Assembly (NCBI GenBank): GCA_046537875.1
Contig: JBKHJZ010000001.1
Span: forward strand, 16,253-80,252
DNA: 64,000 nt
Direction of reading: 5' to 3'
Source of the DNA: Acidimicrobiia bacterium
Lineage (GTDB): Bacteria > Actinomycetota > Acidimicrobiia > Acidimicrobiales > VFJN01
Part shown: positions 16,008-60,590 of the stretch, piece after piece
Position numbering within the stretch: the stretch's first letter is position 1
Layout of the letters: every line of letters starts with the position of its first letter
Program-made: the position numbers and the translations under genes
Notes under the pieces: model-generated
Database searches by the model: none
What the model saw: the letters and a program-made list of their open reading frames with translations, nothing else
Told to the model about the DNA's origin: nothing

Positions 16008-16727
16008 TCACGCGCGGGCCCGGCGGCGGCGCGGGCCCGGCGACCGGGACGCCACGACGTCGTCCGGCGCGATGGCGTGCAGGCAGAACTCCCACATCTC
16101 CGCGGCCGTGATGGGCTGGCGGGCGCCGCCGCTGCGGCCGGCGGTCGTGGTGGCCGCCTGCAGCACCATCGCCGCCAACCGGCGGGGCGATCCCGGACGC
16201 AGGAGGCCGGCGGTGGCCGCATCGTCGAGCATGCCGGCCATGTGGTCGAACAGCGGGGTGTAGGCCCGCGAGACCTCGTCGGGATGGGTCAGCAGCAGGC
16301 GCTGGGCGAACTCGAAGAAGAGCGGCTGCTCGGGGGCCCGGCCGGGGCTGCACAGCTCGTAGAGGACGAGCACGGTCTGCTCGAGGCGGTCGAGGGGATC
16401 GCCCTCCTCCGTGGCCGCCCTGATGCGCTGCACGGCCTCGTTCATCTCCTCCTCGAACAGCGCAAGGAGCAGCTCGTGCTTGCCGTCGAAGTACTGGTAG
16501 AAGCTGCGCAACGACAGCTCCGAGCGGTCGACGACCTCCTGGACCGTGAACTCGACCGAGCTCTTCTCGGCGATGATCTCGCGGGCGGCGTTGAGGAACC
16601 GCTGCACGCGCCTGGCGGCACGCAGCCGGGCCCCGCGGGTGGACCGCTCGATCGCCCGCTCGCGCCAGGCCCCGTCGGCGACGTGGCCGACGGCGACCTC
16701 GCCCGCCTGCTGCTCTGCCTCTGCCAT
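16008..16727 (-). CDS. TetR/AcrR family transcriptional regulator
   Basis: Helix-turn-helix region FTVQEVVDRSELSLRSFYQYFDGKHELL. It is divergent from the ligase at 16901. Confidence 0.8.
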   Translation of the reverse strand: MAEAEQQAGEVAVGHVADGAWRERAIERSTRGARLRAARRVQRFLNAAREIIAEKSSVEFTVQEVVDRSELSLRSFYQYFDGKHELLLALFEEEMNEAVQRIRAATEEGDPLDRLEQTVLVLYELCSPGRAPEQPLFFEFAQRLLLTHPDEVSRAYTPLFDHMAGMLDDAATAGLLRPGSPRRLAAMVLQAATTTAGRSGGARQPITAAEMWEFCLHAIAPDDVVASRSPGPRRRRARA

Positions 16728-16900
16728 GGTCTCACCCTACTGGGGCTCGCATGGCGATCGCGATCTGCGCGAACCTCGTTCTGATTGCCCTCGCGGCACC
16801 CGAGAGCGCCGTTCGCGCCCAGGGACGCCGCATCGGCGTCACATACCTGCGGCCGCCTCCGTCGGTGGCGGCCCGTGCGGACCGTGGAGGCGAGCGAGCA

Positions 16901-23016: not shown

Positions 23017-24318
23017 GTGTCGTGGGACTTCGAGACCGATCCTGAGTACCAGGCCAGGCTGGACTGGGCCGACCGGTTCGTGCGCGAGGAGGTCGAGCCG
23101 CTCGACCACCTCTTCCCGCACCAGCAGTTCGTCCCCCTCGACGGCGCCCGCCGCACGATCGTCGACCCGCTCAAGGACGAGGTCCGCCGCCAGGGCCTCT
23201 GGGCCACCCACCTCGGCCCCGAACTGGGAGGCCAGGGGTTCGGCCAGCTCAAGCTGGCGCTGCTGAACGAGATCCTCGGCCGGTCGTCGTGGGCGCCGGT
23301 CGTCTTCGGGACCCAGGCGCCCGACACCGGCAACGCCGAGATCCTCGCCCACTACGGCACCCCGGAGCAGAAGGACCGCTACCTGCAGCCGCTGCTCGAC
23401 GGCGAGTGCTTCTCGACCTTCTCGATGACCGAGCCCCACGCCGGCGCCGACCCGACCATGTTCCGGACCCGGGCGGTGAGGGACGGCGACGAGTGGGTCA
23501 TCAACGGCGACAAGTACTTCTCGTCGAACGCGCGCACCGCCTCGTTCCTCATCGTCATGGCGGTCACCGACCCCGACGTCAGCCCGTACACGGGCATGTC
23601 GATGTTCCTGGTCCCCACCGACACGCCGGGCATCGAGATCGAGCGCAACGTCGGGCTGTTCGGCGAGCCGATCGGCGAGGGCTCGCACGCGCTCATCCAC
23701 TACCGCGACGTCCGCGTGCCCGACTCGGCGATGCTCGGCGGGGAGGGGCAGGCGTTCGCCGTCGCCCAGACCCGCCTGGGCGGCGGGCGCATCCACCACG
23801 CCATGCGCACCGTCGGCCTCGCCCGCCAGGCGCTCGACATGATGTGCGAGCGGGCCCTCAGCCGCGAGACCCAGGGCAGCCTGCTCGCCGACAAGCAGTT
23901 CGTGCAGGGCTACATCGCCGACTCGTGGGCCCAGCTCGAGCAGTTCCGCCTGCTCGTGCTGCGCACGGCGTGGCGCATCGACACGTTCAACGACTACCGG
24001 AAGGTCCGCAAGGACATCGCCGCCGTGAAGGTCGTCATGCCCACGGTGCTGCACGACATCGCCTGGCGGGCGATGCAGGTGCACGGGGCGCTCGGCACCA
24101 CGAACGAGATGCCGTTCTTCGGCATGATCCTCGGCGCCGGGGTCATGGGCCTGGCCGACGGGCCCACCGAGGTCCACAAGGTCACGGTTGCCCGCCAGGT
24201 GCTGCGGGACCACCGGCCGGCCGAGGGCATGTGGCCCACCGGGTGGATCCCGGGGAAGATCGAGGCCGCCCGGGAGAAGTACGCCGCGCTGCTCGAGCTC
24301 GAGGAGGGGAACCTGTGA
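23017..24318 (+). CDS. Acyl-CoA dehydrogenase of the ACAD10/ACAD11/FadE2 type
   Basis: 433 aa. SMTEPHAGADPT, and a C-terminal LADGPTEVHKVTVARQVL (the DGPxEVH variant typical of the ACAD10/11 clade). Confidence 0.85.
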   Translation: MSWDFETDPEYQARLDWADRFVREEVEPLDHLFPHQQFVPLDGARRTIVDPLKDEVRRQGLWATHLGPELGGQGFGQLKLALLNEILGRSSWAPVVFGTQAPDTGNAEILAHYGTPEQKDRYLQPLLDGECFSTFSMTEPHAGADPTMFRTRAVRDGDEWVINGDKYFSSNARTASFLIVMAVTDPDVSPYTGMSMFLVPTDTPGIEIERNVGLFGEPIGEGSHALIHYRDVRVPDSAMLGGEGQAFAVAQTRLGGGRIHHAMRTVGLARQALDMMCERALSRETQGSLLADKQFVQGYIADSWAQLEQFRLLVLRTAWRIDTFNDYRKVRKDIAAVKVVMPTVLHDIAWRAMQVHGALGTTNEMPFFGMILGAGVMGLADGPTEVHKVTVARQVLRDHRPAEGMWPTGWIPGKIEAAREKYAALLELEEGNL

Positions 24319-25415
24319 CCGCGCCCGCCGCCGGATCCGACGCCGGACCCACCACCGGCGTGCCCGCCCTCGACGCCGGCCGGACCGGGCGCCTCGCCGC
24401 GTGGATGGACGCCGCTGGCCTGCCCGGCACGGGTGCGCCGCTCGAGTCGCGTTTCATCTCCGGGGGGAGCCAGAACGAGATCTACGAGCTGCGCCGGGGC
24501 GACCTGCGCTGCGCGATGCGCATCCCGCCGGCCACCGCGCCGGCCCCGCGCGACGACGGCATCGTGCGCGAGTGGCGGATCATCGAGGCCCTCGGGGGCA
24601 CCGACGTCCCCCACACCCACGCCGTCGCGCTGTGCACCGACCGGTCGGTGCTCGGGCGCACCTTCTACCTGATGGGCTTCGTCGACGGGTGGTCGCCGAT
24701 GGACCTCGAGCCCGGCCCGGACGGGCGCCGCTGGCCCGAGCCGTTCCACAGCGACCCGGCCGCCCGGCGCGGCCTCGCCTTCGAGCTGGTCGAGGGCATC
24801 GCCCGCCTGGGCAACGTCGACTGGCGCGCCCGCGGGCTCGACGACCTCGGGCGCCCCGACGGCTTCCACGACCGCCAGGTCGACCGCTGGACCGCCTTCC
24901 TCGACCGCATCAAGGGCCGCGAGCTGCCCGGCTTCGACGAGGCCGCGGCCTGGCTGCGAACCCACCGCCCGCTCGACTACGTGCCCGGGATCATGCACGG
25001 CGACTACCAGTTCGCCAACGTCATGTTCGAGCACGGCGCACCCGCCCGCCTCGCTGCGATCGTCGACTGGGAGATGGGCACCGTCGGCGACCCGAAGCTC
25101 GACCTGGGCTGGGTGGTGCACTCGTGGCCGGAGGAGACCGACACCGGTGACGGCTCGGTCGGCGGCTACGTCGACATGACGCACATGCCGAGCCGGTCCG
25201 ACGTGCTGGCCCGCTACGCCGAGGTGTCGGGCCGGCAGGTCGACGACATCGACTACTACTGCGTGCTCGCCAAGTGGAAGCTGGCGGTGGTGCTCGAGCA
25301 GGGCTACCAGCGGGCCACCGACGACACGCCGGCGCTCCAGGCCTTCGGGCCGATCGTGCTCGACCTCATGCGGGAGGCCGCCGAGCTGGCCGAGACCACC
25401 ACCTACGGCTCGTGA
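24315..25415 (+). CDS. Phosphotransferase (aminoglycoside-phosphotransferase-like kinase fold)
   Basis: GTGA overlap with the upstream ACAD (24315-24318). Catalytic loop IMHGDYQFANVMF and IVDWEMGTVGDPKLDL motif. Confidence 0.85.
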   Translation: MTAPAAGSDAGPTTGVPALDAGRTGRLAAWMDAAGLPGTGAPLESRFISGGSQNEIYELRRGDLRCAMRIPPATAPAPRDDGIVREWRIIEALGGTDVPHTHAVALCTDRSVLGRTFYLMGFVDGWSPMDLEPGPDGRRWPEPFHSDPAARRGLAFELVEGIARLGNVDWRARGLDDLGRPDGFHDRQVDRWTAFLDRIKGRELPGFDEAAAWLRTHRPLDYVPGIMHGDYQFANVMFEHGAPARLAAIVDWEMGTVGDPKLDLGWVVHSWPEETDTGDGSVGGYVDMTHMPSRSDVLARYAEVSGRQVDDIDYYCVLAKWKLAVVLEQGYQRATDDTPALQAFGPIVLDLMREAAELAETTTYGS

Positions 25416-36353: not shown

Positions 36354-36433
36354 GGCTACCGGATGGCCTAGTGGCCATGCAGCGTGGCGTCGGCGCTGGC
36401 TACCGGATCGCCCCGTCGCCGTGCAGCGTGGCG
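36354..36433. repeat. 44-bp-period direct repeat: a degenerate copy of the ligase gene's 3' end placed just beyond its stop codon
   Basis: 36354-36389 and 36398-36433 match at 31 of 36 positions. The second copy encodes the last 11 codons plus the TAG of the ligase (36400..37977). The first copy is intergenic and contains in-frame stops. Confidence 0.6.
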
Positions 36434-37977
36434 CCGGGCTCGGCTGTGGCCCGCAGCTCCCGCTTGAGGACCTTGCCGGAGGGGTTGCGGGGCAGGGCGT
36501 CGAGGAACGTGACGTCCTTCGGCACCTTGAACCCGGCGAGCTGGCCGCGGCAGTGCTCGATCAACTCCTCGGCGGTGGCCGCCGCACCGGGGCGGAGGAC
36601 CACGTGGGCCACGGGCACCTCGCCCCAGCGCTCGTCGGGGCGCCCCACCACCGCGACCTCGAGGACCGCCGGGTGGTCGTACAGCACCCGCTCGACCTCG
36701 GAGCCCGCGATGTTCTCGCCGCCGGAGACGATCATGTCCTTCAATCGGTCGACGATCCAGAGGTAGCCGTCCTCGTCGCGCACGCCGATGTCGCCGGTGT
36801 GGAACCAGCCCCCGGCGAACGCGGTGGCCGTGGCCTCAGGGTCGCGCCAGTAGCCCGTGAACACCTTGGGTCCGCGCAGGACGATCTCGCCCTTCCCGCC
36901 CGGCGCGACCGATCGCCCCTCCTCGTCCCAGACGTCGAGCTCGAGGTGCAGGCAGGGACGCCCGACGCTGCCCAGCTTGGTGATGATGCTGTCCCGGTCG
37001 AGGAAGGTGTCGCCGGAGACGGTCTCGGTGAGGCCGTAGGCGTCGGCGAACCACGCCGAGGGGAACGTGCGCTGGATCCGCTCGATCAGCGGGATCGGCA
37101 TCTTCTCGCCGCCGTTGATGATCACCCGCACCGACGACAGGTCGCGCGACCCGATGTCGGGCAGCGCCATGATGGCGTTGACCATGGCGGGGGCCAGCCA
37201 GACGGTGGTGACCCGGGAGCGCTCGAGCTCGTCGACGACGGCGGCGGCGTCGAAGGCCCGGTGGATGATGGTGGTGGCGCCGGCGGCGACGAGCGTGGTG
37301 GTGGTGAGGTCGAGCGCGCCCACGTGGTAGAGCGGTCCGCAGGCGAGGCCGAGGTCGTCGCGCGTGAAGCCGAACTCGACGATGTGGGCCAGGTTCTTCC
37401 ACGCCAGGTTCCCGTGGGTGAGCATGACACCCTTCGGCCGTCCGGTCGTGCCCGACGTGTACATGAGCCGGTGCACGTCGTCGGGCCCGGCGGGCACCAG
37501 CGCCGGGGCGCCGCCCTGGCCGCGCAGCTCGGCGAGCGACGTCCAACCCTCGGGGGCCTTGGTCACCGTGCAGGCCCGGGCGATCTCGATGCCCGTGCCG
37601 GCGAGGGCCTCGTCGGCCAGCGGCGCCAGCGCGTCGTCGCAGACGACGGCCTTGGCCTGCGAGTGCTCGAGGATGTAGCCGACCTCGGGCGCGGCGAGCC
37701 GCCAGTTGATCGGCATCGCGATGGCCCCGAGGTGGTTGGCGGCGAAGATGGTCTCGAGCAGTTCGGGGCAGTTGTACGCGAGCAGGGCCACCACGTCGCC
37801 CCGTCCGATCCCGCGTGACCGCAGGCCACCGGCGAGCGCCGCCGACCGGGCGGCCATCTCGGCGTAGGTGAGGGTCTCGCCCTCGAACACGGTGATGGGC
37901 CGCCCGGGAGACCGGGTGGCGTGGTGGGAGAGCACGCCGGCCCAGTTCACGTCCACCGGCATCGTCGCGTCGGGCAT
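36400..37977 (-). CDS. Long-chain-type AMP-dependent acyl-CoA synthetase
   Basis: 525 aa. YTSGTTGRPKGV, YGLTE, FHTGDIG and SGKVLKRELR motifs. Confidence 0.9.
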   Translation of the reverse strand: MPDATMPVDVNWAGVLSHHATRSPGRPITVFEGETLTYAEMAARSAALAGGLRSRGIGRGDVVALLAYNCPELLETIFAANHLGAIAMPINWRLAAPEVGYILEHSQAKAVVCDDALAPLADEALAGTGIEIARACTVTKAPEGWTSLAELRGQGGAPALVPAGPDDVHRLMYTSGTTGRPKGVMLTHGNLAWKNLAHIVEFGFTRDDLGLACGPLYHVGALDLTTTTLVAAGATTIIHRAFDAAAVVDELERSRVTTVWLAPAMVNAIMALPDIGSRDLSSVRVIINGGEKMPIPLIERIQRTFPSAWFADAYGLTETVSGDTFLDRDSIITKLGSVGRPCLHLELDVWDEEGRSVAPGGKGEIVLRGPKVFTGYWRDPEATATAFAGGWFHTGDIGVRDEDGYLWIVDRLKDMIVSGGENIAGSEVERVLYDHPAVLEVAVVGRPDERWGEVPVAHVVLRPGAAATAEELIEHCRGQLAGFKVPKDVTFLDALPRNPSGKVLKRELRATAEPGATLHGDGAIR

Positions 37978-38003
37978 CGGCGTGGCCCCCTCCCCACTTG
38001 CCG

Positions 38004-38021
38004 TTGTACCGACCGGTCATC
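38004..38021. promoter_or_regulatory. Operator-like site A: TTGTACCGACCGGTCATC
   Basis: It sits in the divergent gap between the ligase (start 37977) and the TetR gene (start 38066). It belongs to a 4-member motif family (see sites at 38770, 41041, 45526). Confidence 0.5.
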
Positions 38022-38065
38022 CTATCGACCCGACCCGCACCGGGGGGCCGGTAGCCTGCGGGTCC

Positions 38066-38707
38066 ATGCCGTGGGCCGATCCGAGCGACGACTCCAGTCG
38101 CAGCGACCGGTGGCGGGCCCGCCGCGCCGCCATCGTCGACACGTCGGCCCGCCTGTTCGCTGCGCACGGCTACCACGCCACGGGCATCAACGAGCTGTGC
38201 GACGCCAACGACCTCGGCAAGGGCGCGCTGTACCACTACATCGGCTCGAAGGAGCACCTGCTCGCCGCCATCCACGACCGGGTGATGGACGAGGTCCTCC
38301 GGGGCGCCGACCGGGTCGCCGAGGCCGGCGGGTCCCCGCCCGCGCAGCTCGCCATGCTCGGCGAGGAGCTCCTCGACGTCATCCACCGCTTCCCCGACCA
38401 CGTCTGGGTGTTCCTGCACGAGTTTCCCGCCCTCACCGGTGAGCGGGCCGAGCGCTTCCGGGCGCGCCGCCGGGAGTACGAGCGGCGGGTCGAGGCGGTG
38501 CTCCGGGCCGGCGTGGCGTCGGGGGAGTTCCGCGAGATCGACCCGTGGCTCACCGCCCGGGCGTGGCTGGGCATGCACAACTACACGTACCTGTGGCTGA
38601 AGCCCGGGCACCGCCTGTCGGCGAGGGACGTGGCCGAGCCGTTCGCCACCATCTTCCTGCGGGGCATCCAGGGGTCGCTTCCCCTCGGCTCCGGCCGCCC
38701 TGGTTGA
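38066..38707 (+). CDS. TetR family transcriptional regulator
   Basis: HTH GINELCDANDLGKGALYHYIGSKEHLL. ATG at 38066. Confidence 0.8.
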   Translation: MPWADPSDDSSRSDRWRARRAAIVDTSARLFAAHGYHATGINELCDANDLGKGALYHYIGSKEHLLAAIHDRVMDEVLRGADRVAEAGGSPPAQLAMLGEELLDVIHRFPDHVWVFLHEFPALTGERAERFRARRREYERRVEAVLRAGVASGEFREIDPWLTARAWLGMHNYTYLWLKPGHRLSARDVAEPFATIFLRGIQGSLPLGSGRPG

Positions 38708-38769
38708 CGCCGGCACCCCAGCCGCCGTCGTACCGCTCGGCGCTCCATGGCCGCGACGAAGTGATCCTA

Positions 38770-38787
38770 TTGGACCGACCGGTAGAG
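38770..38787. promoter_or_regulatory. Operator-like site B: TTGGACCGACCGGTAGAG
   Basis: It has the same core, ACCGACCGGT, as site A. It is located between the convergent 3' ends of the TetR gene and the SDR gene, which is an unusual position for an operator. Confidence 0.35.
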
Positions 38788-38804
38788 GCGGGTGGTCGCC
38801 CGGG

Positions 38805-39698
38805 TCAGTCGGGGTCGAGGTGCGAGAGGAACCGGGCCGACCAGTCCGTGAGGCTGGCCGGCACCGTGTAGCCGGCCTCGTCGTTGATCGCCGCCCAGTG
38901 CGCGGCGACGTCCTCGATCGTCGCGGCGCCGCCCTCGTCGACCCAGCCCGGGGTGGACGCGATGAACAGGCGGGCGAAGCGGCCGGCGCCGGCCGTGTAG
39001 ATCTCCCCGCTGACCCGGCACGCCTCGTGGGCGAGGTAGGCGACCATCGGGGCCACCCGCTCCGGCGGCATGTCCGGCCCGCCGCCGGCGGCCATCCGGG
39101 TCGACGCCGCCGGGGCGATGCAGTTCGCGGTGACCCCGTGCCGGGCGCCCGCCGTCGCGAGGCTCCGGGCCAGGCCGATGACCCCGCCCTTGGCCACGGC
39201 GTACGCCGTGTTGCCGGGAAGCCCGAGCATCCCCGTGGAGGTGGTGAGGACCACCCGCCCGTAGCCCCGGTCGACGAAGTGGGGCCAGGCCGCGCGCGCC
39301 GCGAAGAACGATCCACCGAGGTGCACCGCGAGGTGGGCCTCGTAGTCGTCGGTGGGCACGTCGGGGAACGGCGCCCACCGCATGATCCCCGCGTTGGCGA
39401 CGAGCACGTCGACGCGGCCGAACGCTCGAGCGGCGGCGCCGACGAGTGCCTCGGCGCCGGGCTCGGTGGCCACGTCGGAGGTGTCGGCGATCGCCGTCCC
39501 GCCGGCGTCCGTGATCTCGGCGGCGACTGCGGCGGCCGGCCCGGCGTCGGCGCCTTCGCCGGCCATCGATCCGCCGAGGTCGTTGACCACGACCGCGGCG
39601 CCCCGCTCGGCGAGCAGGCGCGCGTAGGCCCGGCCGAGGCCGCGGCCGGCGCCGGTGACGACGGCGACGCGCCCGTCGAAGCGGAGGTGCTCGCTCAT
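38805..39698 (-). CDS. SDR, multifunctional-enzyme-2 / 17-beta-hydroxysteroid-dehydrogenase-4-like (3-hydroxyacyl-CoA dehydrogenase type)
   Basis: TGAGRGLGRAYA...VVVNDLG, NAGI and YAVAKGG motifs. The C-terminal extension is typical of this SDR subgroup. Confidence 0.85.
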   Translation of the reverse strand: MSEHLRFDGRVAVVTGAGRGLGRAYARLLAERGAAVVVNDLGGSMAGEGADAGPAAAVAAEITDAGGTAIADTSDVATEPGAEALVGAAARAFGRVDVLVANAGIMRWAPFPDVPTDDYEAHLAVHLGGSFFAARAAWPHFVDRGYGRVVLTTSTGMLGLPGNTAYAVAKGGVIGLARSLATAGARHGVTANCIAPAASTRMAAGGGPDMPPERVAPMVAYLAHEACRVSGEIYTAGAGRFARLFIASTPGWVDEGGAATIEDVAAHWAAINDEAGYTVPASLTDWSARFLSHLDPD

Positions 39699-39732
39699 GG
39701 CCGGTCGGCGGATCGGCGCCGGCGCGGGCGGC

Positions 39733-40977
39733 TCAGGCCGGCACCGGTGCCAGGCCGAGGACGTTCGCGAGCGTGCCGCCCAGGATCGCCTTGCGCTCGT
39801 CGTCGGGAAGGCCGGCGAGCTGCGTGGCGATCAGCTCGCGGCTGCCACGGAAGGTGCCCTCGGCATGCGGGTAGTCGTTGCCCCACACGATGGTCGAGAG
39901 GCCGGTGATGTGCCGGCAGGCCACCGCCACCGGGTCGTCCTGGAACTGCACGTGGAACTGGCGCCGGACGTACTCGCTCGGCATCAGCGGGTACGGCCAC
40001 TTCTCGTTCAGGCGGAACAGCTGCGCCATGTCGGGCTGGTCGTGGGCCGGCCGGCTGTCGTCCCAGCGGCCGAGCCACCAGTCGGGGTCCTGGCCGGTGC
40101 CGGTGATCCAGCACTTGTCGAGGCCGCCGACGAGCGACGACAGCCAGTGGGCGTTGAACTCGATCAGGCAGAAGTGCAGGTCGGGGTAGCGCTCGGGCAC
40201 GCCGGCCCCGATGAGGTGGCAGATCAGCTGTTGCGGGACGATGGTGCCGTAGACGGCCTGGGTGACCATCCGCTTCGCCGCCGCCTTCCCGGTCATCGGC
40301 TGGTTGACCTGGGCGGCGTTCTCCAGCACCACCTTCAGCGTGGTGGCCTCGGCGTCGTCGACCTTCACGCCGCCGGTCTGGGTGTGGAAGAAGGGTTGCA
40401 CGCCGTTGGCCTGCGCCGCCGCCCACACCGGGTCGAGCTCGTGTGTGTGGTAGTTCCGCGGCGGCGTCGCCGGCAGGAGGATCGCCCGGAAGCCGTTCCC
40501 GGCCACCCGCTCGATCTCGGTGACGGCGTCGTCGACGTCGGTGATGGGGATCGGTGCCGTGAATACCAGGCGGTCGAAGTACGGCGCGAACCGCTCGACG
40601 ATGTAGTCGTTGTAGACCCGGGCGTGGGCCATCGACAGCTCGTGGTCGTCGGAGTAGAGGCCGAACAGCGACAGGTTCGGGTGCATGACCTGGACGTCGA
40701 CCCCGTCCAGGTCCATGTCCTCGAGGATGCACTCCGGGTCGCCCTCGGGCATGCGGCCGCCGGTCTGGCGGTAGCGGGAGATGGTCCAGCCCTCGTAGCC
40801 GGCGGTGTGCAGCCGGCGGAACTTGCGGGCGCCGCCCTCCACCCAGGGCTCGTCGAGCTCGAAGTCCTCCTCCCACACCGCGCGGTCGCGGAGGTGCCTC
40901 GGGAGGCGGGTCTTGAACAGGTCGGTCGGCTCGAGGACGTGCCCGTCCCCCGAGACGACGAAGTCCTTCTCAACCAT
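39733..40977 (-). CDS. Amidohydrolase-2 (PF04909-like) family protein, paralog B
   Basis: VSGDGHVLEP N-terminal motif and WGNDYPHAEG C-terminal motif. Confidence 0.8.
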   Translation of the reverse strand: MVEKDFVVSGDGHVLEPTDLFKTRLPRHLRDRAVWEEDFELDEPWVEGGARKFRRLHTAGYEGWTISRYRQTGGRMPEGDPECILEDMDLDGVDVQVMHPNLSLFGLYSDDHELSMAHARVYNDYIVERFAPYFDRLVFTAPIPITDVDDAVTEIERVAGNGFRAILLPATPPRNYHTHELDPVWAAAQANGVQPFFHTQTGGVKVDDAEATTLKVVLENAAQVNQPMTGKAAAKRMVTQAVYGTIVPQQLICHLIGAGVPERYPDLHFCLIEFNAHWLSSLVGGLDKCWITGTGQDPDWWLGRWDDSRPAHDQPDMAQLFRLNEKWPYPLMPSEYVRRQFHVQFQDDPVAVACRHITGLSTIVWGNDYPHAEGTFRGSRELIATQLAGLPDDERKAILGGTLANVLGLAPVPA

Positions 40978-41040
40978 CGTGCTCTACCTTCCCGAGCATG
41001 AAAATTGCGTTGTCGTCGTGCGCGAAAGCCCGTCCCCAAA

Positions 41041-41058
41041 GTAGACCGATCGGTACAA
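41041..41058. promoter_or_regulatory. Operator-like site C: GTAGACCGATCGGTACAA (reverse complement identical to site D)
   Basis: It lies 23 nt upstream of the cyclase start and 64 nt upstream of the divergent amidohydrolase start. The core ACCGATCGGT is a perfect palindrome. Confidence 0.5.
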
Positions 41059-41080
41059 CCCCGGCAACGAGGAGGACGAC

Positions 41081-42118
41081 GTGACGTCACGGTGGAGGCA
41101 GCGCCCACCGGGGTCGACCTGGGGGGACTGGGGTGACGACGACGAGCTGGGCCGGATCAACCTGCTCACCCCCGAGAAGGTGCTCCACGGGGTGCGCGAG
41201 GTGGAGCACGGCCTCTCGTTCTGCCTGAGCCTGCCGCTCGACCTGCCCGGCGGCACCGTGCTCAACCAGCGCCGCCGCCCGCCCCGCGTCGCTCCGACCG
41301 AGGACATGGAGGGCACCCCGGCCACCTTCTACAACGTCCACATGAGCGAGATGCCCGGCTTCGGCGACCCCAAGTACGTCGATGTCTGGGCCGACGACGT
41401 GGTCACCCTGGCGCTGCAGTACTCCACGCAGTGGGACTCGCTCGCCCACGTCGGCGCCGAGTTCGACGCCGACGGCGACGGGGTCGACGAGGCCGTCTAC
41501 TACAACGGCTACCGGGCCGGGGTCGATCTCGAGGGCCCCACCGCCGACGGCCGCTGCGTCGCCCACCACCTCGGCCTCGAGCACATGGCCGTCCACGGCG
41601 TGCAGGGCCGCGGCGTCCTCGTCGACCTCGAGGCCCACCTCGGCCGCGAGTGGCGGGCCGTCGACCTGGCCACCCTGCAGGCGATCATGGACGCCGACGG
41701 CGTGGTGGTGGAGCCCGGCGACGTCCTGCTCCTCCACACCGGCTTCGCCACCCAGCTCGTGGAGTGGGGCGGGGCGCCCGACCCGCGCACGGTCTTCACG
41801 ACGGGCAGCTACCTCGACGCCCACGACCAGGCGCTGCTCGAGTGGATCGCCGACAGCGGGATCGCCGCGCTCGCGGCCGACAACTACGCGGTGGAGGGGC
41901 TGCTCGGGAAGGACCGGGATCCCGCCCGCCACTCGTTCCTGCCCATCCACCACCTGTGCCTGTTCAAGCTCGGGGTGCCCCTCGGCGAGCTGTGGTACCT
42001 GCGCGACCTGGCCGCCTGGCTGCGGGAGCACGGCCGCAGCCGGTTCCTGCTCACGGCGCCGCCGCTCCGCCTGCCCGGCATCGTCGGCTCACCCGTCACC
42101 CCGATCGCGACCGTGTGA
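41081..42118 (+). CDS. Cyclase-family protein (kynurenine-formamidase fold) with a degenerate metal motif
   Basis: GTG at 41081 follows GGAGGA. The overall pattern is that of the putative-cyclase family, but the usual HxGTHxDxPxH region reads YSTQWDSLAH. Confidence 0.75.
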   Translation: MTSRWRQRPPGSTWGDWGDDDELGRINLLTPEKVLHGVREVEHGLSFCLSLPLDLPGGTVLNQRRRPPRVAPTEDMEGTPATFYNVHMSEMPGFGDPKYVDVWADDVVTLALQYSTQWDSLAHVGAEFDADGDGVDEAVYYNGYRAGVDLEGPTADGRCVAHHLGLEHMAVHGVQGRGVLVDLEAHLGREWRAVDLATLQAIMDADGVVVEPGDVLLLHTGFATQLVEWGGAPDPRTVFTTGSYLDAHDQALLEWIADSGIAALAADNYAVEGLLGKDRDPARHSFLPIHHLCLFKLGVPLGELWYLRDLAAWLREHGRSRFLLTAPPLRLPGIVGSPVTPIATV

Positions 42119-42351
42119 CCTCGGCCGATCGCGCGGTCGCTCGTTGCTCGATCGTGCCGGGTCCGGTGAGACCCTCACCATCATCACCGGTCGCCCCGCC
42201 ATCATGCTCGCTCCCTCGGACCACGTTCGGGGACCGCACGTGCTGCCGGAGAGCGTGCCGTTCGATCGGGCTGCCTTCAGCGGTGTGGCGGCACGCTTCA
42301 CGACGTATGATGGCTGCGGTCGGAGGCTGTCACTGACGGGGGGAGTGTGAC

Positions 42352-43878
42352 GTGCCTGTTCGTCGTCGCGACCTGCTGAGGGGCGGCCTCGCCGCCGGTG
42401 CCATGGTGGCGCTCGGCCCGAGGGCTGCGCTGAGCGCGCCACTCGTGACCCCTCGGGGTCGGGGCGCGCAGCGGCGTTCGGCGCTCTTTCCGGGCGTCCG
42501 CCTCGTCCATGCCGACCTCCACAACCACAGCCACCTGTCCGACGGTGCCGGTGACCCGTCCGCCTTCCACGCCATGATGCGGCGGGAGGGGTTGGACATA
42601 GCGGCGCTGACCGACCACACCGTCGCGGGTTTCGGGCGCCGGGACTTCTGTGCTCCGGTGCCCGACGTCGTGGGTGAGGCGAACCCGTGCCGCTCGATCC
42701 TCGGCATGACGGACGCGGGCTGGCAGACCACGCGCCGGCTCGCGGACGACGCCGACGCCCCGGCCCGGTACGCGGCGCTGCCCGGCTTCGAGTGGTCGAG
42801 CCCGCATCTCGGGCACATGAACGTCTGGTTCAGCGAGGACTGGATGGATGCGCTGCGGACCGGCGGCGTCACCGCCGACGGGCTGGCCCAGGTCGGCCTC
42901 CCGATCGAGCTGCTGGAGCTGCTGCTGCGGACGGAGTTCGGCGAGCTGATGACCGAAGCCGAGATCGCCGAGCTGCTCACCGCCATCCGCGACCAGGACC
43001 CGGTGGGCATGCGGCTCTTCTACGACTGGCTGCTGCGCCGGCCCGGCGACGGCGAGCTGGGCGGCGGTGCCGACGGGCTGACGGGGTTCAACCACCCGAA
43101 CCGTGAACCGGCGGTGTTCGACGACTTCGCCTTCGACGAGCGCATCGCCGACCGCATGGTGTCTCTGGAGCTGTTCAACCGGCGCGAGGACTACCTGTTC
43201 AAGAACCTGGCGGCCGGCATGCCCTCGCCCCTCGTGGCCTGCCTCAACGCCGGCTGGCGGGTGGGGATCATCGGCACCACCGACGAGCACGGCGTGCAGT
43301 GGGGCGTCGAGCAGGGCAAGGGTCGGACGGGGCTGTGGCTGCGAGGGCTGCAACGACGTGGTGTGCGCGACGCCCTGCTCGCACGTCGCGTGTTCGGTAC
43401 CCGGGAGGCGGGGTTGCGCCTCGCCGCAACCGCCGACCGTGTGCCCATGGGTGGCAGCCTCCCCGGACGTGCGGGCCGCACGAGATTCGCGGTCGATCTC
43501 GACCTGGGACCCGAGCGCGCCGGAATGCCCGTCGCGGTGCAGGTTCTGCGACCGGGCACCGAGGTGCCCCAGGTCGCCGACGTGATCACGGCCGAGTCCG
43601 CGCAGCCGCACGGGCGGCCCGGCGCCCGGCCGATCACCTTCGATGTGCACCTGGACCCTGACGACGGTGACTGGGTCGTGCTCCGCGTTGCGGATCCGGC
43701 GACGCCGAGCGACGCACCCGCGCCATTCGACCACCCGTGCAACGACTGGGCACTCGCCTACACCAGCCCGTGGTGGCTCGGTGCGCCGCCGCCGGCAGGC
43801 CGCCGGGGTTCCACGACCCTCGCACCCCGGGGGCGGGCTGCGCCCGCCGAGCCGAGATGGTGGGTCCACGATCACTGA
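42352..43878 (+). CDS. Tat-signal PHP-domain metallo-phosphoesterase-like protein
   Basis: The N-terminal RRRDLLRGGLAAGAMVALGP twin-arginine signal is followed by a HADLHNHSHLSDG PHP-type motif. GTG start follows GGGGGGA. Confidence 0.7.
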   Translation: MPVRRRDLLRGGLAAGAMVALGPRAALSAPLVTPRGRGAQRRSALFPGVRLVHADLHNHSHLSDGAGDPSAFHAMMRREGLDIAALTDHTVAGFGRRDFCAPVPDVVGEANPCRSILGMTDAGWQTTRRLADDADAPARYAALPGFEWSSPHLGHMNVWFSEDWMDALRTGGVTADGLAQVGLPIELLELLLRTEFGELMTEAEIAELLTAIRDQDPVGMRLFYDWLLRRPGDGELGGGADGLTGFNHPNREPAVFDDFAFDERIADRMVSLELFNRREDYLFKNLAAGMPSPLVACLNAGWRVGIIGTTDEHGVQWGVEQGKGRTGLWLRGLQRRGVRDALLARRVFGTREAGLRLAATADRVPMGGSLPGRAGRTRFAVDLDLGPERAGMPVAVQVLRPGTEVPQVADVITAESAQPHGRPGARPITFDVHLDPDDGDWVVLRVADPATPSDAPAPFDHPCNDWALAYTSPWWLGAPPPAGRRGSTTLAPRGRAAPAEPRWWVHDH

Positions 43879-43882
43879 ACGT

Positions 43883-45556
43883 TCAGGCGGAGCGTGCCGT
43901 GGCGCCCACGCGTGACCGGCGGAACGCCGCGTAGCCGGTGGCCTTCACCCGGGCGATCTCCTTGTGGAGCTTGGGGCGCCCGCCGGCGTTGAGGAGGTAG
44001 CGCTTCGGCTTGCCCGGGATGTTGCCGCCGACGTACTGGCCGATCGTCCCGAACGGTGTCTCGGCGGCGGCCCGGTCGACCATGTCGGTCCAGCGCCGCT
44101 CGGCCTCGGGCGTCACCTCGACGACGCCGTAGCCCTGTGCGCGTGCGTCGACGAGCACGTCGGTCACGAAGTCGACCTGGTCGCCGTTGTAGCGGGGGTT
44201 GTTGCCGGCGGCGGCGTGCGGGCCGCCCGGGAAGAACAGGTTCGGGAAGCCGGCGGTCTGGATGCCGAGGAACGTCGAGGGCCCCTCGGCCCAGTGGTCG
44301 GTGAGGGCGAGGGCGTCGCGGCCGACGATGCCCATGCGGGTCATGGCGCCGGTGCCGAAGTCGAACCCGGTGGCCCACACGATGACGTCGTGCTCGCGGC
44401 GGGTCGCGGTGGTCCGGATGCCGGACTCCGTGACCCGCACCATCGGCTCCTCCCTGAGGTCGACGAGCGACACGTGCGGCTCGTTGAACGCCTCGAAGAA
44501 GCCGGCCACGTACGGCGGGCGCTTCTCGCCGTAGCGGTGGTCGTTCGGGATCAGCTTCTCGGCCGTCTCCGGGTCGTGCACGATGCTGCGGATCTTGCCG
44601 GCGATGAACTCGCACCACTCCCGGTTGGCCTCGCCGTTGGTGAGGATGTCCGCGTAGTTGCTGGTGAACTTCATGAACCCGGGGCTCGCCCACATCCGCT
44701 CGAAGAACGCCTGCCGTTCCTCGGGGGTGTCGTCGAACGCCGAGCGCGGGTTCGGCGGGTGGTGGAACCCGTGGACGGAGCGGTCCACCAGATCGCACAG
44801 CTCCTCGAAGCCCGCTCGGAGCTCCGCCTGCTCCGCCGGGGTGATCGGCCGGTTGTTCAGCGGGGTGCACCAGTTGGCGCTGCGCTGGTACACGGTGAGC
44901 TCGGCGACCTCGTCCACCACCGCCGCCACCACCTGCACGCCGGACGACGAGGTGCCCACGACGGCGACCCGCTGTCCGGCGAGGTCCACGGGCTCGGCGG
45001 GCCACCGGCCGGTGTGGTGCTGCACACCGCCGAAATCGCCCCGTCCGGGGATGTCGGGGACGTAGGGCACGGACAGCACGCCGGTCGCAGCGACGAGGAA
45101 CCGCGCCCGGCTGGCGCCGCCGTCGTCGGTGGCGACCAGCCACGTGCCCGTCGCCTCGTTCCACCGCGCGGACGTGACCCGGGCGCCGAAGCACATGTGC
45201 CGGCGAAGGTCGAAGCGGTCGACGACGTGGTTGAGGTAGCGCTCGATCTCGGGCTGGGTGGCGAAGTGCTCCTGCCACTCCCACTCCTCGAACAGCTCCT
45301 TCGAGAACAGGTAGCCGTACGTGTAGCTCTCCGAATCGAACCGGGCGCCCGGGTAGCGGTTCCAGAACCACGTGCCGCCCACGCCGTCGCCGGCCTCGAC
45401 GAGCCGGGCGGTGAAGCCCTCCTCGAGGGCCCGGTGCAGCTGGTGGATGCCGGTGATGCCGGCGCCCACGACGAGCACGTCGACGTCTGCCGGCGGCGGT
45501 GGGGTGATGCGAGCGGTTCCCGATTTTGTACCGATCGGTCTACTGTAGGCAGCCAC
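43883..45556 (-). CDS. Baeyer-Villiger (type I flavin) monooxygenase
   Basis: DVDVLVVGAGITG FAD motif, BVMO fingerprint FGGVQHHTGRWP, and a second Rossmann motif VAVVGTSSSG. The start is uncertain: GTG at 45556 is the only standard start upstream of the conserved DVDV. Confidence 0.8.
   Translation of the reverse strand: MAAYSRPIGTKSGTARITPPPPADVDVLVVGAGITGIHQLHRALEEGFTARLVEAGDGVGGTWFWNRYPGARFDSESYTYGYLFSKELFEEWEWQEHFATQPEIERYLNHVVDRFDLRRHMCFGARVTSARWNEATGTWLVATDDGGASRARFLVAATGVLSVPYVPDIPGRGDFGGVQHHTGRWPAEPVDLAGQRVAVVGTSSSGVQVVAAVVDEVAELTVYQRSANWCTPLNNRPITPAEQAELRAGFEELCDLVDRSVHGFHHPPNPRSAFDDTPEERQAFFERMWASPGFMKFTSNYADILTNGEANREWCEFIAGKIRSIVHDPETAEKLIPNDHRYGEKRPPYVAGFFEAFNEPHVSLVDLREEPMVRVTESGIRTTATRREHDVIVWATGFDFGTGAMTRMGIVGRDALALTDHWAEGPSTFLGIQTAGFPNLFFPGGPHAAAGNNPRYNGDQVDFVTDVLVDARAQGYGVVEVTPEAERRWTDMVDRAAAETPFGTIGQYVGGNIPGKPKRYLLNAGGRPKLHKEIARVKATGYAAFRRSRVGATARSA
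45526..45543. promoter_or_regulatory. Operator-like site D: TTGTACCGATCGGTCTAC
   Basis: It is identical to the reverse complement of site C. It lies 41 nt upstream of the Rieske ATG, and inside the first ~10 codons of the BVMO if that gene starts at 45556. Confidence 0.5.
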
Positions 45557-45583
45557 GTGCCGTCGAGCCAGGAGAAGAGCGCC

Positions 45584-46939
45584 ATGGCGCCGGACCACCG
45601 GTCGCTCCCGGTCCCGTTCGCGGTCGAGGTGCCCGACCGCGTGGCCACGCAGCGCTACCACGACCCGGCGTTCTTCGCGCTGGAGACCGAGCTTCTCTGG
45701 CCCCGCGTGTGGCAGATGGCGTGCCGGCTCGAGCAGATCCCGGACCCCGGCGACTACGCCGAGTACACGATCCTCGACGACTCGGTCATCGTCGTCCGGG
45801 GTGACGACGGTGAGGTGCGCGCCTTCCAGAACGCCTGCCGACACCGGGGCGTCCGCCTGGTGGAGGGCCCCGGCCGCTGCGAGTCCGGCTTCACCTGCCC
45901 GTTCCACGGCTGGTGCTACGGCACCGACGGGCGCAACACCTTCGTCTCCCGCAGGCGCACCTTCTCCGAGCACAACCTCCGGGACGGCGACATCGACCTC
46001 GTTCCGGTCCGCTGCGAGACCTGGGGCGGCTGCGCCTGGATCAACCTCGACCCCGGCGCTCCACCCCTGCGGGACAGCATCGAGCCGTTCGCCACCGTCA
46101 TGGACGCCTGGCAGCTGCAGACACTGCACGCCGAGTGGTGGTACGCCTTCCGGCTCCCCGTGAACTGGAAGCTCGCCGAGGAGGCGTTCATGGAGCAGTA
46201 CCACGTGCTCGAGACCCACCCGCAGCTCCGCATCCCCGGCCGCTACCCGGCCAAGGACGGCTCCTTCGACCCGACGACGTTCCTCGAGTCCGAGCTGCAC
46301 TACCTGCGCGTGATGAGCGAGGGCATGTCCGGGATGGTCCACGCGCACGACGTGGCCGTGGCGGAGCAGCTCGCCCCCACCGTCGAGCTACCGGCCGACC
46401 CGGTGCTCGCCCGCCGGCACTGGGAGAGCGCCTTCAGCGATGCGGTCGTGGCATGGCACCGCCAGCGCGGCGCACCCATCCCCGACCTCGACGAGCTCGA
46501 GGCCGGCGGCCTGAACGAGCCGATGGGGTACTGCTTCCCCCACTTCTTCGTGCTCCCGATGTACAGCAGCGCCTCCTCGTACCGCTTCCGTCCGCTCGGC
46601 CCGGAGGAGACGCTCATGGAGATCTGGTCGCTCACGCGCTTCCCCGTGGGGGAGGAGCCCGGCCCGCTCCCGGTGCCGGAGGCGTGGGCGCACGACGACC
46701 CCCGGGTGCCGCCGATCCCGGTGCAGGACTTCTCGAACCTGCCGCGGCAGCAGCGGGGGCTGCGCACGAGGGGGTTCGAGTACATGCGGCTGTCCGAGCA
46801 GATCGAGGGGCACATCTCGAACTACCACCGGCTGATCGACGGCTACCTGGCCGGCTCGAGCCACGAGCAGCTCGCTCCCGCCCTGGAGCACGTCAACGTG
46901 AACCCGCTCGACCGGTCGATGGTGGACATCGGGCTGTGA
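45584..46939 (+). CDS. Rieske (2Fe-2S) non-heme-iron oxygenase, alpha-subunit type
   Basis: ATG follows GGAGAAG. Rieske motif CRHRG...CPFHGW, and a C-terminal catalytic-domain-like region with EQYHVLETH. Confidence 0.85.
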   Translation: MAPDHRSLPVPFAVEVPDRVATQRYHDPAFFALETELLWPRVWQMACRLEQIPDPGDYAEYTILDDSVIVVRGDDGEVRAFQNACRHRGVRLVEGPGRCESGFTCPFHGWCYGTDGRNTFVSRRRTFSEHNLRDGDIDLVPVRCETWGGCAWINLDPGAPPLRDSIEPFATVMDAWQLQTLHAEWWYAFRLPVNWKLAEEAFMEQYHVLETHPQLRIPGRYPAKDGSFDPTTFLESELHYLRVMSEGMSGMVHAHDVAVAEQLAPTVELPADPVLARRHWESAFSDAVVAWHRQRGAPIPDLDELEAGGLNEPMGYCFPHFFVLPMYSSASSYRFRPLGPEETLMEIWSLTRFPVGEEPGPLPVPEAWAHDDPRVPPIPVQDFSNLPRQQRGLRTRGFEYMRLSEQIEGHISNYHRLIDGYLAGSSHEQLAPALEHVNVNPLDRSMVDIGL

Positions 46940-47340
46940 GCGGGCCGACCCTCGCCGACGTCGACGCCGGGGTGCGCCGGACGCTCGCCGCCTACACCCA
47001 GGCCCTCGACGACGGCCGCGCCGCCGACGTGGTCGCCACCTTCTGCCCCGACGGTGTGGTCGACATCCCCGGGATGGGCACCCACGAGGGCCACGAGGCC
47101 CTGCTCGCGGCGTACACCGGCTGGGCGCCGCAGCGCCCGCAGCGCCACCTCGTGCTCAACACGCACATCACGCGCTGGGACGAGCACGAGGCCGAGGCGG
47201 TGAGCGACATCGTCCTCCTGCTCCTCGGGGAGAGGGGTTGGAAGGTCCAGCTGGTCGGTCGCTACGAGGACCTGCTCCACCACGACGACGGCACGTGGCG
47301 ATTCCGTCGCCGCCGGGCCACTTTCGTGACGGGCGGGTGA
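46936..47340 (+). CDS. NTF2-fold (SnoaL-like) protein, possibly a beta-subunit-like partner of the Rieske oxygenase
   Basis: GTGA overlap with the Rieske gene (46936-46939). 134 aa. RHLVLNTHI...GRYEDLLHHDDGTWRFRRR pattern of SnoaL_4/NTF2-like proteins. Confidence 0.75.
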   Translation: MSGPTLADVDAGVRRTLAAYTQALDDGRAADVVATFCPDGVVDIPGMGTHEGHEALLAAYTGWAPQRPQRHLVLNTHITRWDEHEAEAVSDIVLLLLGERGWKVQLVGRYEDLLHHDDGTWRFRRRRATFVTGG

Positions 47341-58970: not shown

Positions 58971-60590
58971 ATGCGTCTGCTCCCGCAACTGACCCCGGAG
59001 AACGAGTGGTTCTGGACCTCGGGCGCCGACGGGCGCCTGCGCGTCCAGGGCTGCCGTGACTGCTCGACGCTCGTGCACCCACCCGCTCCGGTCTGCCCGG
59101 CCTGCCGGAGCAGCAGCCGGGAGCCGACGCCGGTCTCCGGGCGGGCGACCGTGGCGGGCTACACGGTCAACTCGCACCCGTGGATCCCCGGGTTCGACCC
59201 GCCATACGTCATCGCGGTCGTGGCGCTGGAGGAATCGCCCGACGTCCGGCTGACCACGAACATCGTCGGCTGCGACCCCGACGACGTGCACATCGGCCAG
59301 GAGGTCGCGGTGCGGTTCGAGGAGCACGACGGCGTGTTCCTCCCGCTGTTCGAGCCGACCGGGGCGACCCACGAGAACCCGGTTCCCGAGCCGAAGCTGC
59401 CGGCGCCCCGGCCCGCGGCGAGCACCGACCGGTTCGAGCACCGGGCCGTGCTCTCGGGCATCGGCCGCTCGGCGATCGGCCGCCGGCTCATGGTCGACCC
59501 GCTGTCGCTCACCGTCGACGCCTGCCTCGCGGCCATCGACGACGCCGGCCTGCGGCCCGACGACATCGACGGCCTGTCGACCTACCCGGGCGCGGTGGGG
59601 ATGGGCATGAGCGAGGGCGGCGTCACCGCCGTGGAGGAGGCGCTGCGCCTCCATCCCACGTGGATCAACGGCGGCATGGACATCCCCGGGCCGGGCGGCG
59701 CGGTGATGAATGCCATGCTCGCCGTGTCGGCGGGCCTGTGCCGCCACGTCCTGTGCTTCCGGACGGTGTGGGAGACCACCTTCGCTGCCCGCGGCGGCAC
59801 GGGTGCCACGGGCGGCGGCGGAGGGCCGGACTGGATGCAGTGGCGCCTGCCGTTCGGCGCGGCGTCGGCGGCGACCTGGATCGGCATGAACGCCAACCAG
59901 TACCTGCACCGCTACGGCGCCACCCGGGAGCTGTTCGGGCGCATCGCCGTGAACGCCCGCGCCAACGCCGGCCGGAACCCGCTGGCGATCTACCGCGAGC
60001 CGATGACGATGGACGACTACTTCGGCGCCCGGCCCATCACGAGCCCCTTCGGGCTCTACGACTGCGACGTGCCCTGCGATGCGTCGATCGCCGTCATCGT
60101 GTCCGCGGCCGACGTCGCCGACGACCTGCCGCAGCCGGCGGTGCACGTCGAGGCGGTCGGCACGCAGGTCCTCGAGCGGATCTCGTGGGACCAGGGCACG
60201 CTCACCCACGAACCGCAGGTTCTCGGCCAGTCCGCCCACCTCTGGACCCGCACCGACCTCCGCCCGGACGACGTCGACGTGGCCCTGCTCTACGACGGCT
60301 TCACCTTCAACTGCGTGAGCTGGCTCGAGGGCCTCGGCTTCTGCGGCCTCGGCGAGGCGAAGGACTTCGTCGGCGACGGCAGCCGCATCGCCCTCGACGG
60401 TGAGCTGCCGCTGAACCCCCACGGGGGGCAGCTGTCCGAGGGTCGCACCCACGGCTTCGGGTTCGTCCACGAGGCCGTGCTCCAGCTGCGCCACGCGGCC
60501 GGGGAGCGCCAGGTGGCCGACGCGTCCACCGCCGTGGTGGCCACCGGCGGTGGCACGCCCTCCGGCGTGATGCTGCTGCGGAGCGCGTGA
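58971..60590 (+). CDS. Fusion protein: N-terminal DUF35 (zinc-ribbon + OB-fold) and C-terminal SCP-x/Ltp-type thiolase-like domain lacking the thiolase catalytic residues
   Basis: CRDCSTLVHPPAPVCPAC zinc ribbon plus OB-fold (~aa 1-125). The thiolase-like part has NPHGGQLSEGRTHGFG, but GPGG sits where the nucleophile C(A/S)SG is expected, and ATGGG where the C-terminal CxGGG is expected. Confidence 0.8.
   Translation: MRLLPQLTPENEWFWTSGADGRLRVQGCRDCSTLVHPPAPVCPACRSSSREPTPVSGRATVAGYTVNSHPWIPGFDPPYVIAVVALEESPDVRLTTNIVGCDPDDVHIGQEVAVRFEEHDGVFLPLFEPTGATHENPVPEPKLPAPRPAASTDRFEHRAVLSGIGRSAIGRRLMVDPLSLTVDACLAAIDDAGLRPDDIDGLSTYPGAVGMGMSEGGVTAVEEALRLHPTWINGGMDIPGPGGAVMNAMLAVSAGLCRHVLCFRTVWETTFAARGGTGATGGGGGPDWMQWRLPFGAASAATWIGMNANQYLHRYGATRELFGRIAVNARANAGRNPLAIYREPMTMDDYFGARPITSPFGLYDCDVPCDASIAVIVSAADVADDLPQPAVHVEAVGTQVLERISWDQGTLTHEPQVLGQSAHLWTRTDLRPDDVDVALLYDGFTFNCVSWLEGLGFCGLGEAKDFVGDGSRIALDGELPLNPHGGQLSEGRTHGFGFVHEAVLQLRHAAGERQVADASTAVVATGGGTPSGVMLLRSA

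Follow-up and report, generated by a model that had tools for sequence, protein, structure and literature searches.

A predicted TetR-family regulon with an 18-bp ACCG-NN-CGGT operator in a putative catabolic gene module of Acidimicrobiia

Operators with an ACCG-NN-CGGT core are known from several bacterial regulators. In Thermus thermophilus HB8, PfmR (TTHB023) binds CTTACCGACCGGTTGG, TTTACCGACCGGTTGG, and CCTACCGACCGGTCGG at 0.3-1 nM, at sites overlapping -35, -10, or +1; it regulates its own gene as well as those of acyl-CoA dehydrogenases, a ligase, short-chain dehydrogenases/reductases (SDRs), and a thiolase (PMC7022988). The operator of AibR in Myxococcus xanthus is an 18-bp palindrome, ACCTACCGGTCGGTAGGT, and in the crystal structure only two residues read bases, Lys47 contacting G12/G13 and Tyr51 contacting T14 (PMC5389471). 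In Burkholderia cenocepacia, an inverted repeat with ACCGACCGGTCGGT between -35 and -10 is needed for repression by PaaR (BCAL0210) (PMC2770484), and in Saccharopolyspora erythraea the footprinted sites of SACE_1906, with TATACCGACCGGTG or CACCGGTCGGTATA, lie in the intergenic region between its own gene and a divergent one (PMC12890868). Here we describe a 64-kb stretch of contig JBKHJZ010000001.1 from an Acidimicrobiia bacterium (hereafter the window, meaning the whole stretch), in which four copies of an 18-bp palindrome of this kind, sites A to D, lie around a TetR-family gene (38066..38707, +) and a group of putative catabolic genes. The best explanation is that the adjacent TetR protein represses the module through these sites, a reading that comparison with relatives makes likely.

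The pattern TTGKACCGAYCGGT has exactly four matches in the window, at 38004 (+), 38770 (+), 41045..41058 (-), and 45526 (+), whereas 100 dinucleotide-preserving shuffles gave no match, not even one 14-mer. Written out in full, the motif reads TTGKACCG-NN-CGGTMCAA, a palindrome of the 8-2-8 type whose ACCG..CGGT core is invariant; ACCG-N2-CGGT is centred in a palindrome of ~16-18 bp at each of the four window sites and at 213 sites of orthologous loci. A position weight matrix built from the sites of orthologous loci, and trained on sequence only, scores site A (38004..38021, TTGTACCGACCGGTCATC) at 16.2 bits, site B (38770..38787, TTGGACCGACCGGTAGAG) at 22.3 bits, and sites C (41041..41058, GTAGACCGATCGGTACAA on the plus strand) and D (45526..45543, TTGTACCGATCGGTCTAC) at 22.2 bits each, with the next best position in the 64 kb at 12.6 bits. 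Site A occupies the 88-bp divergent gap between the ligase and TetR genes, site C the 103-bp divergent gap between the amidohydrolase and cyclase genes, and site D the space between the Baeyer-Villiger monooxygenase (BVMO) and Rieske genes, while site B is placed between two stop codons, those of TetR (38707) and of an SDR gene (38805). A first-pass annotation of the window had listed four such 18-mers, three in divergent gaps and one just 3′ of the TetR gene, with C equal to D over its whole length; all four were found as it had written them, in the placements it had given, and comparison confirmed that C and D agree at 18 of 18 nt. Similarity among the sites is limited to the 18-22 bp of the motif, in a window of 73% GC.

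Conservation of the motif was followed in 80 loci from different Acidimicrobiia species whose TetR is 73-86% identical to that of the window (1.44 Mb in total), onto which homologues of the window genes and four extra genes found in the relatives were mapped. The loci show five operator positions, namely ligase/TetR, SDRb/E1, acyl-CoA dehydrogenase/aldolase, amidohydrolase/cyclase, and BVMO/Rieske, where E1 is a fused alpha-beta, thiamine-dependent protein with E1_dh and transketolase domains and the aldolase is of class II. Sites of at least 16 bits number 213, against 3.6 in shuffles, and 200 of them fall within -40..+250 bp of the 5′ ends of regulon genes. A site stands upstream of SDRb in 61/61 loci, of E1 in 61/64, of the amidohydrolase in 49/50, of the cyclase in 42/43, of the aldolase in 28/30, and of the acyl-CoA dehydrogenase in 45/61; among loci with enough upstream DNA, the counts are 9/10 for the BVMO and 7/8 for the Rieske gene. 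The SDR that is second in its operon, which serves as an internal negative, has a site upstream in only 1/53. Sites also follow the same gene starts where genes have been reordered (L043, L059, L063, L067, L068, L071, L076). Because the matrix was trained on sequence alone, this positional enrichment is independent of the training. Co-conservation of motif and regulator in orthologous loci, which the first-pass annotation had named as a check, was examined in this way, and the motif recurs at the same gene starts in 80 species.

At the ligase/TetR position the element is less uniform. A site lies ~60 bp upstream of the TetR start, at a fixed distance, in about 39 of the 80 species, often as the variant TTGTACCGACCAGTCAGY. 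Most orthologues of site A have CCAGT for CCGGT in one half-site, a change at the guanine most important for AibR binding, which would fit an operator purposely kept weaker at the promoter of the repressor itself. In a subclade comprising L015-L019, L021, L024, and L025 (~9900-10001), the ligase/TetR gap is ~60 bp long and has no operator, keeping only a -10-like CTAGCGT before the TetR start; repressor and ligase of this subclade may have escaped autoregulation. Dual overlapping sites (ACCGACCGGTCGGT) occur in L013 (5655-5676) and L031 (10260-10281), as in PfmR and PaaR operators, and might bind two dimers; all window sites are single.

The TetR protein itself, 213 aa long and matching an NCBI-called protein from an Acidimicrobiia metagenome-assembled genome (MAG) at 100% identity, has a TetR_N domain (PF00440, E 2.9e-13) and a TetR_C_24 domain (PF17932, E 1.3e-28), and is the predicted binder of sites A to D. 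A search of the PDB matched 70 TetR relatives, the best of which are an uncharacterised Thermobifida TetR (3DCF), PfmR (3VPR; E 4.5e-23, 31% over 182 aa), and AibR (5K7F; E 1.8e-21, 32% identity), all 31-34% identical over ~180 residues. The helix-turn-helix is nearly invariant across orthologues, with the recognition helix GKGALYHYIGSKE in the window protein and SKAALYHHFGSKE in PfmR. Residues K52 and Y56 align with the base-reading Lys47 and Tyr51 of AibR, and are kept in 80/81 (K) and 81/81 (Y) sequences. Since the characterised relatives PfmR and AibR bind the ACCG-NN-CGGT core, this homology gives the assignment of TetR to the motif its decisive support. TetR is also the only regulator seen throughout the 80 loci. 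The window's second TetR (16008-16727) was considered as the binder and rejected, as it has homologues in only 5/80 loci; this gene (-) is divergent from an AMP-ligase gene (16751-18496, +), and the pair has no copy of the motif. The earlier proposal that one adjacent TetR uses the motif for a compact module, distinct from the surrounding beta-oxidation genes, is supported by three independent lines, footprinting in 80 species, the PfmR and AibR homologues, and specificity within the window. Its estimate of the regulon's extent falls short for the ancestral regulon, which is larger and has five operator positions rather than four.

Actinobacterial -10 elements take the form TAnnnT. Each of the four window sites has such a hexamer overlapping or abutting its edge, as do 179/209 orthologous sites, over a background of ~0.5 counts per position. 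The predicted -10 of the ligase promoter (TAGGAT, 38019..38024, -) overlaps the edge of site A, and that of the amidohydrolase-SDR promoter (TACTTT, 41038..41043, -) overlaps the edge of site C. At the edge of site D, overlapping candidate elements (45541..45547, both strands) would serve the Rieske gene (TACTGT, +) and the BVMO gene (TACAGT, -), and orthologues have an equivalent TAGTAT/TATACT pair at this position. For tetR, the putative -10 TAGCCT (38052..38057, +) stands 8 nt before the ATG and has a conserved counterpart in the relatives (CTAGCGT/CTAACCT, 7-12 nt before the TetR start), so tetR is probably transcribed as a leaderless mRNA. In the mechanism that we propose, a TetR dimer would read TTGKACCG-NN-CGGTMCAA, with Lys52 contacting the two G's of each CGGT half-site and Tyr56 the T, and once bound would occlude the -10 or start site of one or both divergent promoters. 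At site A, this would block the ligase promoter and probably also the promoter of tetR itself; at site C, the promoters of the amidohydrolase-SDR operon and the cyclase gene; and at site D, those of the BVMO gene and the Rieske-SnoaL pair.

Repression would most likely be relieved when the C-terminal domain binds a CoA thioester that the divergent ligase makes from the pathway substrate or an intermediate. This putative effector is suggested by the C-terminal domain family (TetR_C_24), by matches over the full length to AibR and KstR2, by the conserved CoA-contact residues of AibR, and by the acyl-CoA ligase encoded divergently. The CoA and switch residues of AibR, H114, K131/K132, Y134, W169, Y171, and K175, align with H118, R135/R136, Y138, Y173, Y175, and K179, so that by alignment the CoA-holding positions of AibR have the same residue or a conservative replacement in the window protein.

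Site B differs from the other three in its surroundings, and the relatives suggest how this came about. There, the orthologous site has the same left flank, GATC(C/A)TATTGGACCG, and lies directly 5′ of an acyl-CoA dehydrogenase gene that starts 6-7 nt past a TAGGAT/TATGAT -10 and is often divergent from the class II aldolase gene. The window has no orthologue of that acyl-CoA dehydrogenase, of the aldolase, of the fused E1, or of two SDRs, and holds only paralogues that are 30-35% identical. The usual block of ~5 kb between the TetR stop and the site B operator is missing, which leaves site B between the 3′ ends of tetR and the SDR gene, two genes that converge there. A -10-like TAGGAT (38764..38769, -) is intact, abuts site B, and is directed antisense into the 3′ end of tetR. 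The best reading is that site B and this hexamer are the remnant of a lost acyl-CoA dehydrogenase promoter, leaving an orphan operator. An independent read-level assembly has the same TetR-SDR junction, so it is not a binning artefact. In the first-pass annotation the TetR gene was described as bracketed by sites A and B; the positions are right, but by comparison with the relatives B is best read as a leftover operator, and any function of the bracketing would be hypothetical.

Several observations weigh against the proposed repression, or against parts of it. The source organism is an uncultured MAG. Binding and repression are predictions, and we likewise infer where the promoters lie, in which direction regulation runs, what the effector is, and which substrate is broken down. 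The 80 loci were chosen through their TetR gene, and the co-occurrence of TetR and motif is partly built in. A metagenome scan for the perfect palindrome TTGTACCGNNCGGTACAA matched 120 contigs, mostly from unrelated organisms, and only one locus (L114) from this regulon; the scan is therefore no independent test of the linkage to TetR. A scan of 37800-45800 for E. coli-type promoters and terminators found none, with a consensus that is uninformative for an actinobacterium of 73% GC, and promoter positions therefore depend on the TAnnnT hexamers, a search for which gave no -10-like element for the cyclase promoter. Site A has the lowest score of the four, and about half of the orthologues lack it or have a G-to-A change in one half-site. 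It is also located a little 5′ of the predicted tetR -35, which it does not cover, so autoregulation of tetR may be weaker than repression of the ligase. As for the effector, that of PfmR has, to our knowledge, not been established. AibR has the reverse logic, in that it needs its ligand in order to bind DNA (PMC5389471).

Other explanations of the same observations were weighed. One is that the four copies arose by chance or belong to a short repeat of GC-rich DNA that has no regulatory role. In its favour, the 10-bp core ACCGAYCGGT is also present within four coding regions of the window; set against the empty shuffles, the end of similarity at 18-22 bp, and an element kept at orthologous promoters in 80 species while its flanks diverged, this idea is effectively refuted. 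A motif that is real but bound by another protein, encoded elsewhere, with the adjacent TetR serving another target, would fit the sampling through TetR, the half of the orthologues whose TetR promoter has no good site, and the unrelated TetRs with a similar GKGxLYH helix that adjoin the perfect palindrome in other phyla. It is nevertheless very improbable, as two characterised homologues at 31-32% identity bind the same core, the base-reading residues are kept, no other regulator is conserved in the loci, and the ligase/TetR site persists at a constant spacing in about 39 of 80 species.

Two further alternatives leave repressor and operators in place and change how they are used. Under the first, DNA would be bound only with the CoA thioester, as in AibR, and acyl-CoA feedback would shut the module off. 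AibR, one of the three solved relatives nearest to the window TetR, needs isovaleryl-CoA to bind DNA, and its switch pair His114/Tyr171 corresponds to H118/Y175, invariant in the 80 orthologues, where PfmR has Gln/Ile. However, two conserved residues do not fix the direction of allostery, and the regulated genes look catabolic, not biosynthetic. In KstR2, in Thermus and Bacillus FadR, and in PaaR, all of them catabolic TetR regulators of this group, the CoA ligand frees the protein from its DNA, which also speaks against this logic, and we consider it distinctly unlikely. Were it true, a widespread oxidative catabolic module of soil Acidimicrobiia would be throttled by acyl-CoA feedback rather than induced by substrate. 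The other alternative concerns site B, which may still work as a TetR-controlled antisense promoter into the 3′ end of tetR or as a roadblock between the tetR and amidohydrolase-SDR transcripts. Its score of 22.3 bits is as high as those of C and D, the minus-strand TAGGAT is intact and arranged as at the acyl-CoA dehydrogenase promoters of relatives, and the junction recurs in the independent assembly. Yet the right half-site has drifted (GGTAGAG vs the conserved GGTACAA), two relatives in which the SDR directly follows TetR (L061, L066) have no site there, and a recent deletion without selection would give the same picture. Such a residual role is possible but unsupported, and we hold it to be unlikely; the combination of ligand-dependent binding as in AibR with TetR-controlled antisense transcription from site B into tetR is less likely still. 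The preferred reading thus remains repression by the adjacent TetR, relieved by a CoA thioester, with site B as an orphan.

The genes of the module had been named in the first-pass annotation, and every name agrees with Pfam. On the minus strand, divergent from TetR, is an acyl-CoA synthetase (AMP-ligase; 36400..37977) with AMP-binding and AMP-binding_C domains, which adjoins TetR divergently in most of the 80 loci; a GH3 glycosidase lies directly 3′ of the ligase operon. Past site B, an Amidohydro_2 metal hydrolase (39733..40977, -) and an SDR oxidoreductase (38805..39698, -) both assigned by Pfam and, for the hydrolase, also by synteny, are the first and second genes of an operon predicted to be under the control of site C. 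Transcribed away from the same site is a putative hydrolase of the Cyclase family (PF04199; 41081..42118, +), likewise assigned by Pfam and synteny; NCBIfam has no specific name for either the amidohydrolase or the cyclase. The PHP/CehA-McbA-like metallohydrolase that follows (42352..43878, +), a weak Pfam match with an arginine-rich, signal-like N-terminus that contains RR (MPVRRRDLLRGGLAAGA...), has no homologue in any of the 80 related loci and is an insertion specific to the source genome, between cyclase and BVMO. Because it has no counterpart in relatives and the 233-bp gap 5′ of it has no site, its membership in the regulon is doubtful.

On the far side of this insertion is a type I Baeyer-Villiger/flavin monooxygenase (43883..45556, -; start uncertain, ~45500), identified by Pfam and PtlE-like below the cut-off. 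Just past site D the gene lacks a convincing canonical start codon; its start candidates are GTG 45556, ATC 45508, and GTG 45478, the last of which lies 4 residues before GxGxxG. GTG 45556 is the only upstream canonical start and would place site D in codons 5-10; the 13 codons that follow it include site D and many that, atypically, end in A/T, which makes a start 3′ of it probable, and in relatives the BVMO has an ATG directly past the operator. A Rieske alpha subunit with Rieske and Ring_hydroxyl_A domains (45584..46939, +) is transcribed away from site D, its ATG preceded by the Shine-Dalgarno sequence AGGAGAAG, and is translationally coupled through a GTGA overlap to a SnoaL_4/NTF2-like small subunit (46936..47340, +; Pfam). 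With these genes, a ketone might be oxidised to an ester or lactone, and the product then hydrolysed, dehydrogenated, activated with CoA, and passed to beta-oxidation; the module is probably a small oxidative breakdown gene cluster under TetR control.

The rest of the window is a lipid/xenobiotic catabolic island with thiolases, acyl-CoA dehydrogenases, and the second TetR. Taken as a whole, the window has an unusual density of catabolic paralogues, with ~7 AMP-ligases, including that of the module, four Amidohydro_2 genes (13869, 39733, 54087, and others), two P450s with a ferredoxin reductase, a TauD dioxygenase, and a fused ChsH2-like/thiolase-like protein (58971-60590). Matches to the core alone at 20372, 24632/24636, 40913, and 59420 were considered as extra operators and rejected, as all lie within coding sequence and reach at most 12.6 bits; that at 40913 coincides with the codons for a conserved PTDLF peptide of the amidohydrolase. 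The 14-mer ACCGACCGGTCGGT at 24636-24649, an exact 14-mer of the Burkholderia PaaR inverted repeat, is inside a phosphotransferase-like gene (24316-25415, +) 3′ of an acyl-CoA dehydrogenase, where it encodes CTDRSV, and is probably coincidental. In other organisms, L106 (530-1620) and ~30 other metagenome loci (L101, L132, L140, L160, and others) have the perfect palindrome TTGTACCGATCGGTACAA 5′ of an operon in which a DUF1348/NTF2-like gene is joined by a TetR gene. These loci belong to unrelated organisms of ~63% GC, the recognition helix of their TetR is similar (GKGSLYH), and this looks like another family that uses the same operator class.

Many of the TetR orthologues have the JGI label 'cholesterol catabolism regulator', and KstR2, the mycobacterial regulator of steroid C/D-ring degradation with HIP-CoA as ligand (4W97), does share the C-terminal domain family, with a full-length match at E 3.6e-12, and the general design of a 6-2-6 palindrome, a CoA-thioester effector, and a partner acyl-CoA ligase. 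It is nevertheless more distant from the window TetR than PfmR or AibR. The KstR2 box is AnCAAGnnCTTGnT and the KstR box TnnAACnnGTTnnA; the former has 0 matches in the 64 kb with at most one mismatch allowed, and the latter is absent from the window. A KstR2 regulon was rejected on the absence of these boxes, on a ligase score of 365 bits vs the FadD3 cut-off of 657, and on the targets themselves (amidohydrolase, cyclase, BVMO, and Rieske); no ipdAB, echA20-type, or related genes were seen. A PaaR regulon was rejected as well, since the window has no paa genes, with no phenylacetate-pathway families among the 40 window proteins scanned. On these comparisons, we assign the predicted regulon to the PfmR/AibR/PaaR operator class, and not to KstR2 or PaaR regulons.

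To a specialist this would come as no surprise, being a solid annotation of an ordinary regulon of a known kind with no new principle. What it offers is a testable regulon for an abundant, uncultured class of actinobacteria, with one repressor, one 18-bp operator, and five conserved promoter positions, that links a ligase, SDRs, a fused thiamine-dependent E1, an acyl-CoA dehydrogenase, an aldolase, an amidohydrolase, a cyclase-family hydrolase, a BVMO, and a Rieske oxygenase. Shared operators imply that these genes act in one pathway, which helps in assigning its substrate.

Among the known systems, PfmR has operators nearly the same as those described here (TGTACCGACCGGTTGG in orthologues). 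It differs in belonging to another phylum and in controlling a fatty-acid/phenylacetate regulon without BVMO, Rieske, amidohydrolase, or cyclase genes, and it lacks the His/Tyr pair that the window TetR shares with AibR. Some PfmR targets have two overlapping sites, which are reported to bind two dimers, whereas the window sites are single palindromes. The AibR operator (structures 5K7F/5K7H/5K7Z) has the register and core of the window sites and differs at the outer positions (ACCT vs TTGT/K), and AibR itself differs in its ligand-dependent binding, in serving a biosynthetic operon, and in its unrelated gene content. PaaR, likened here by operator alone, shares the core half-sites, although its repeats are dual and overlapping. 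SACE_1906, also likened by operator alone, is an actinobacterial example of the same core; it differs in its targets, an alcohol dehydrogenase and erythromycin genes, and in its proposed effector, acetaldehyde. The regulon predicted here extends the ACCG-NN-CGGT operator class, known earlier from Thermus PfmR, Myxococcus AibR, Burkholderia PaaR, and Saccharopolyspora SACE_1906, to the Acidimicrobiia, and the same Lys/Tyr pair appears to read the operator throughout the class.

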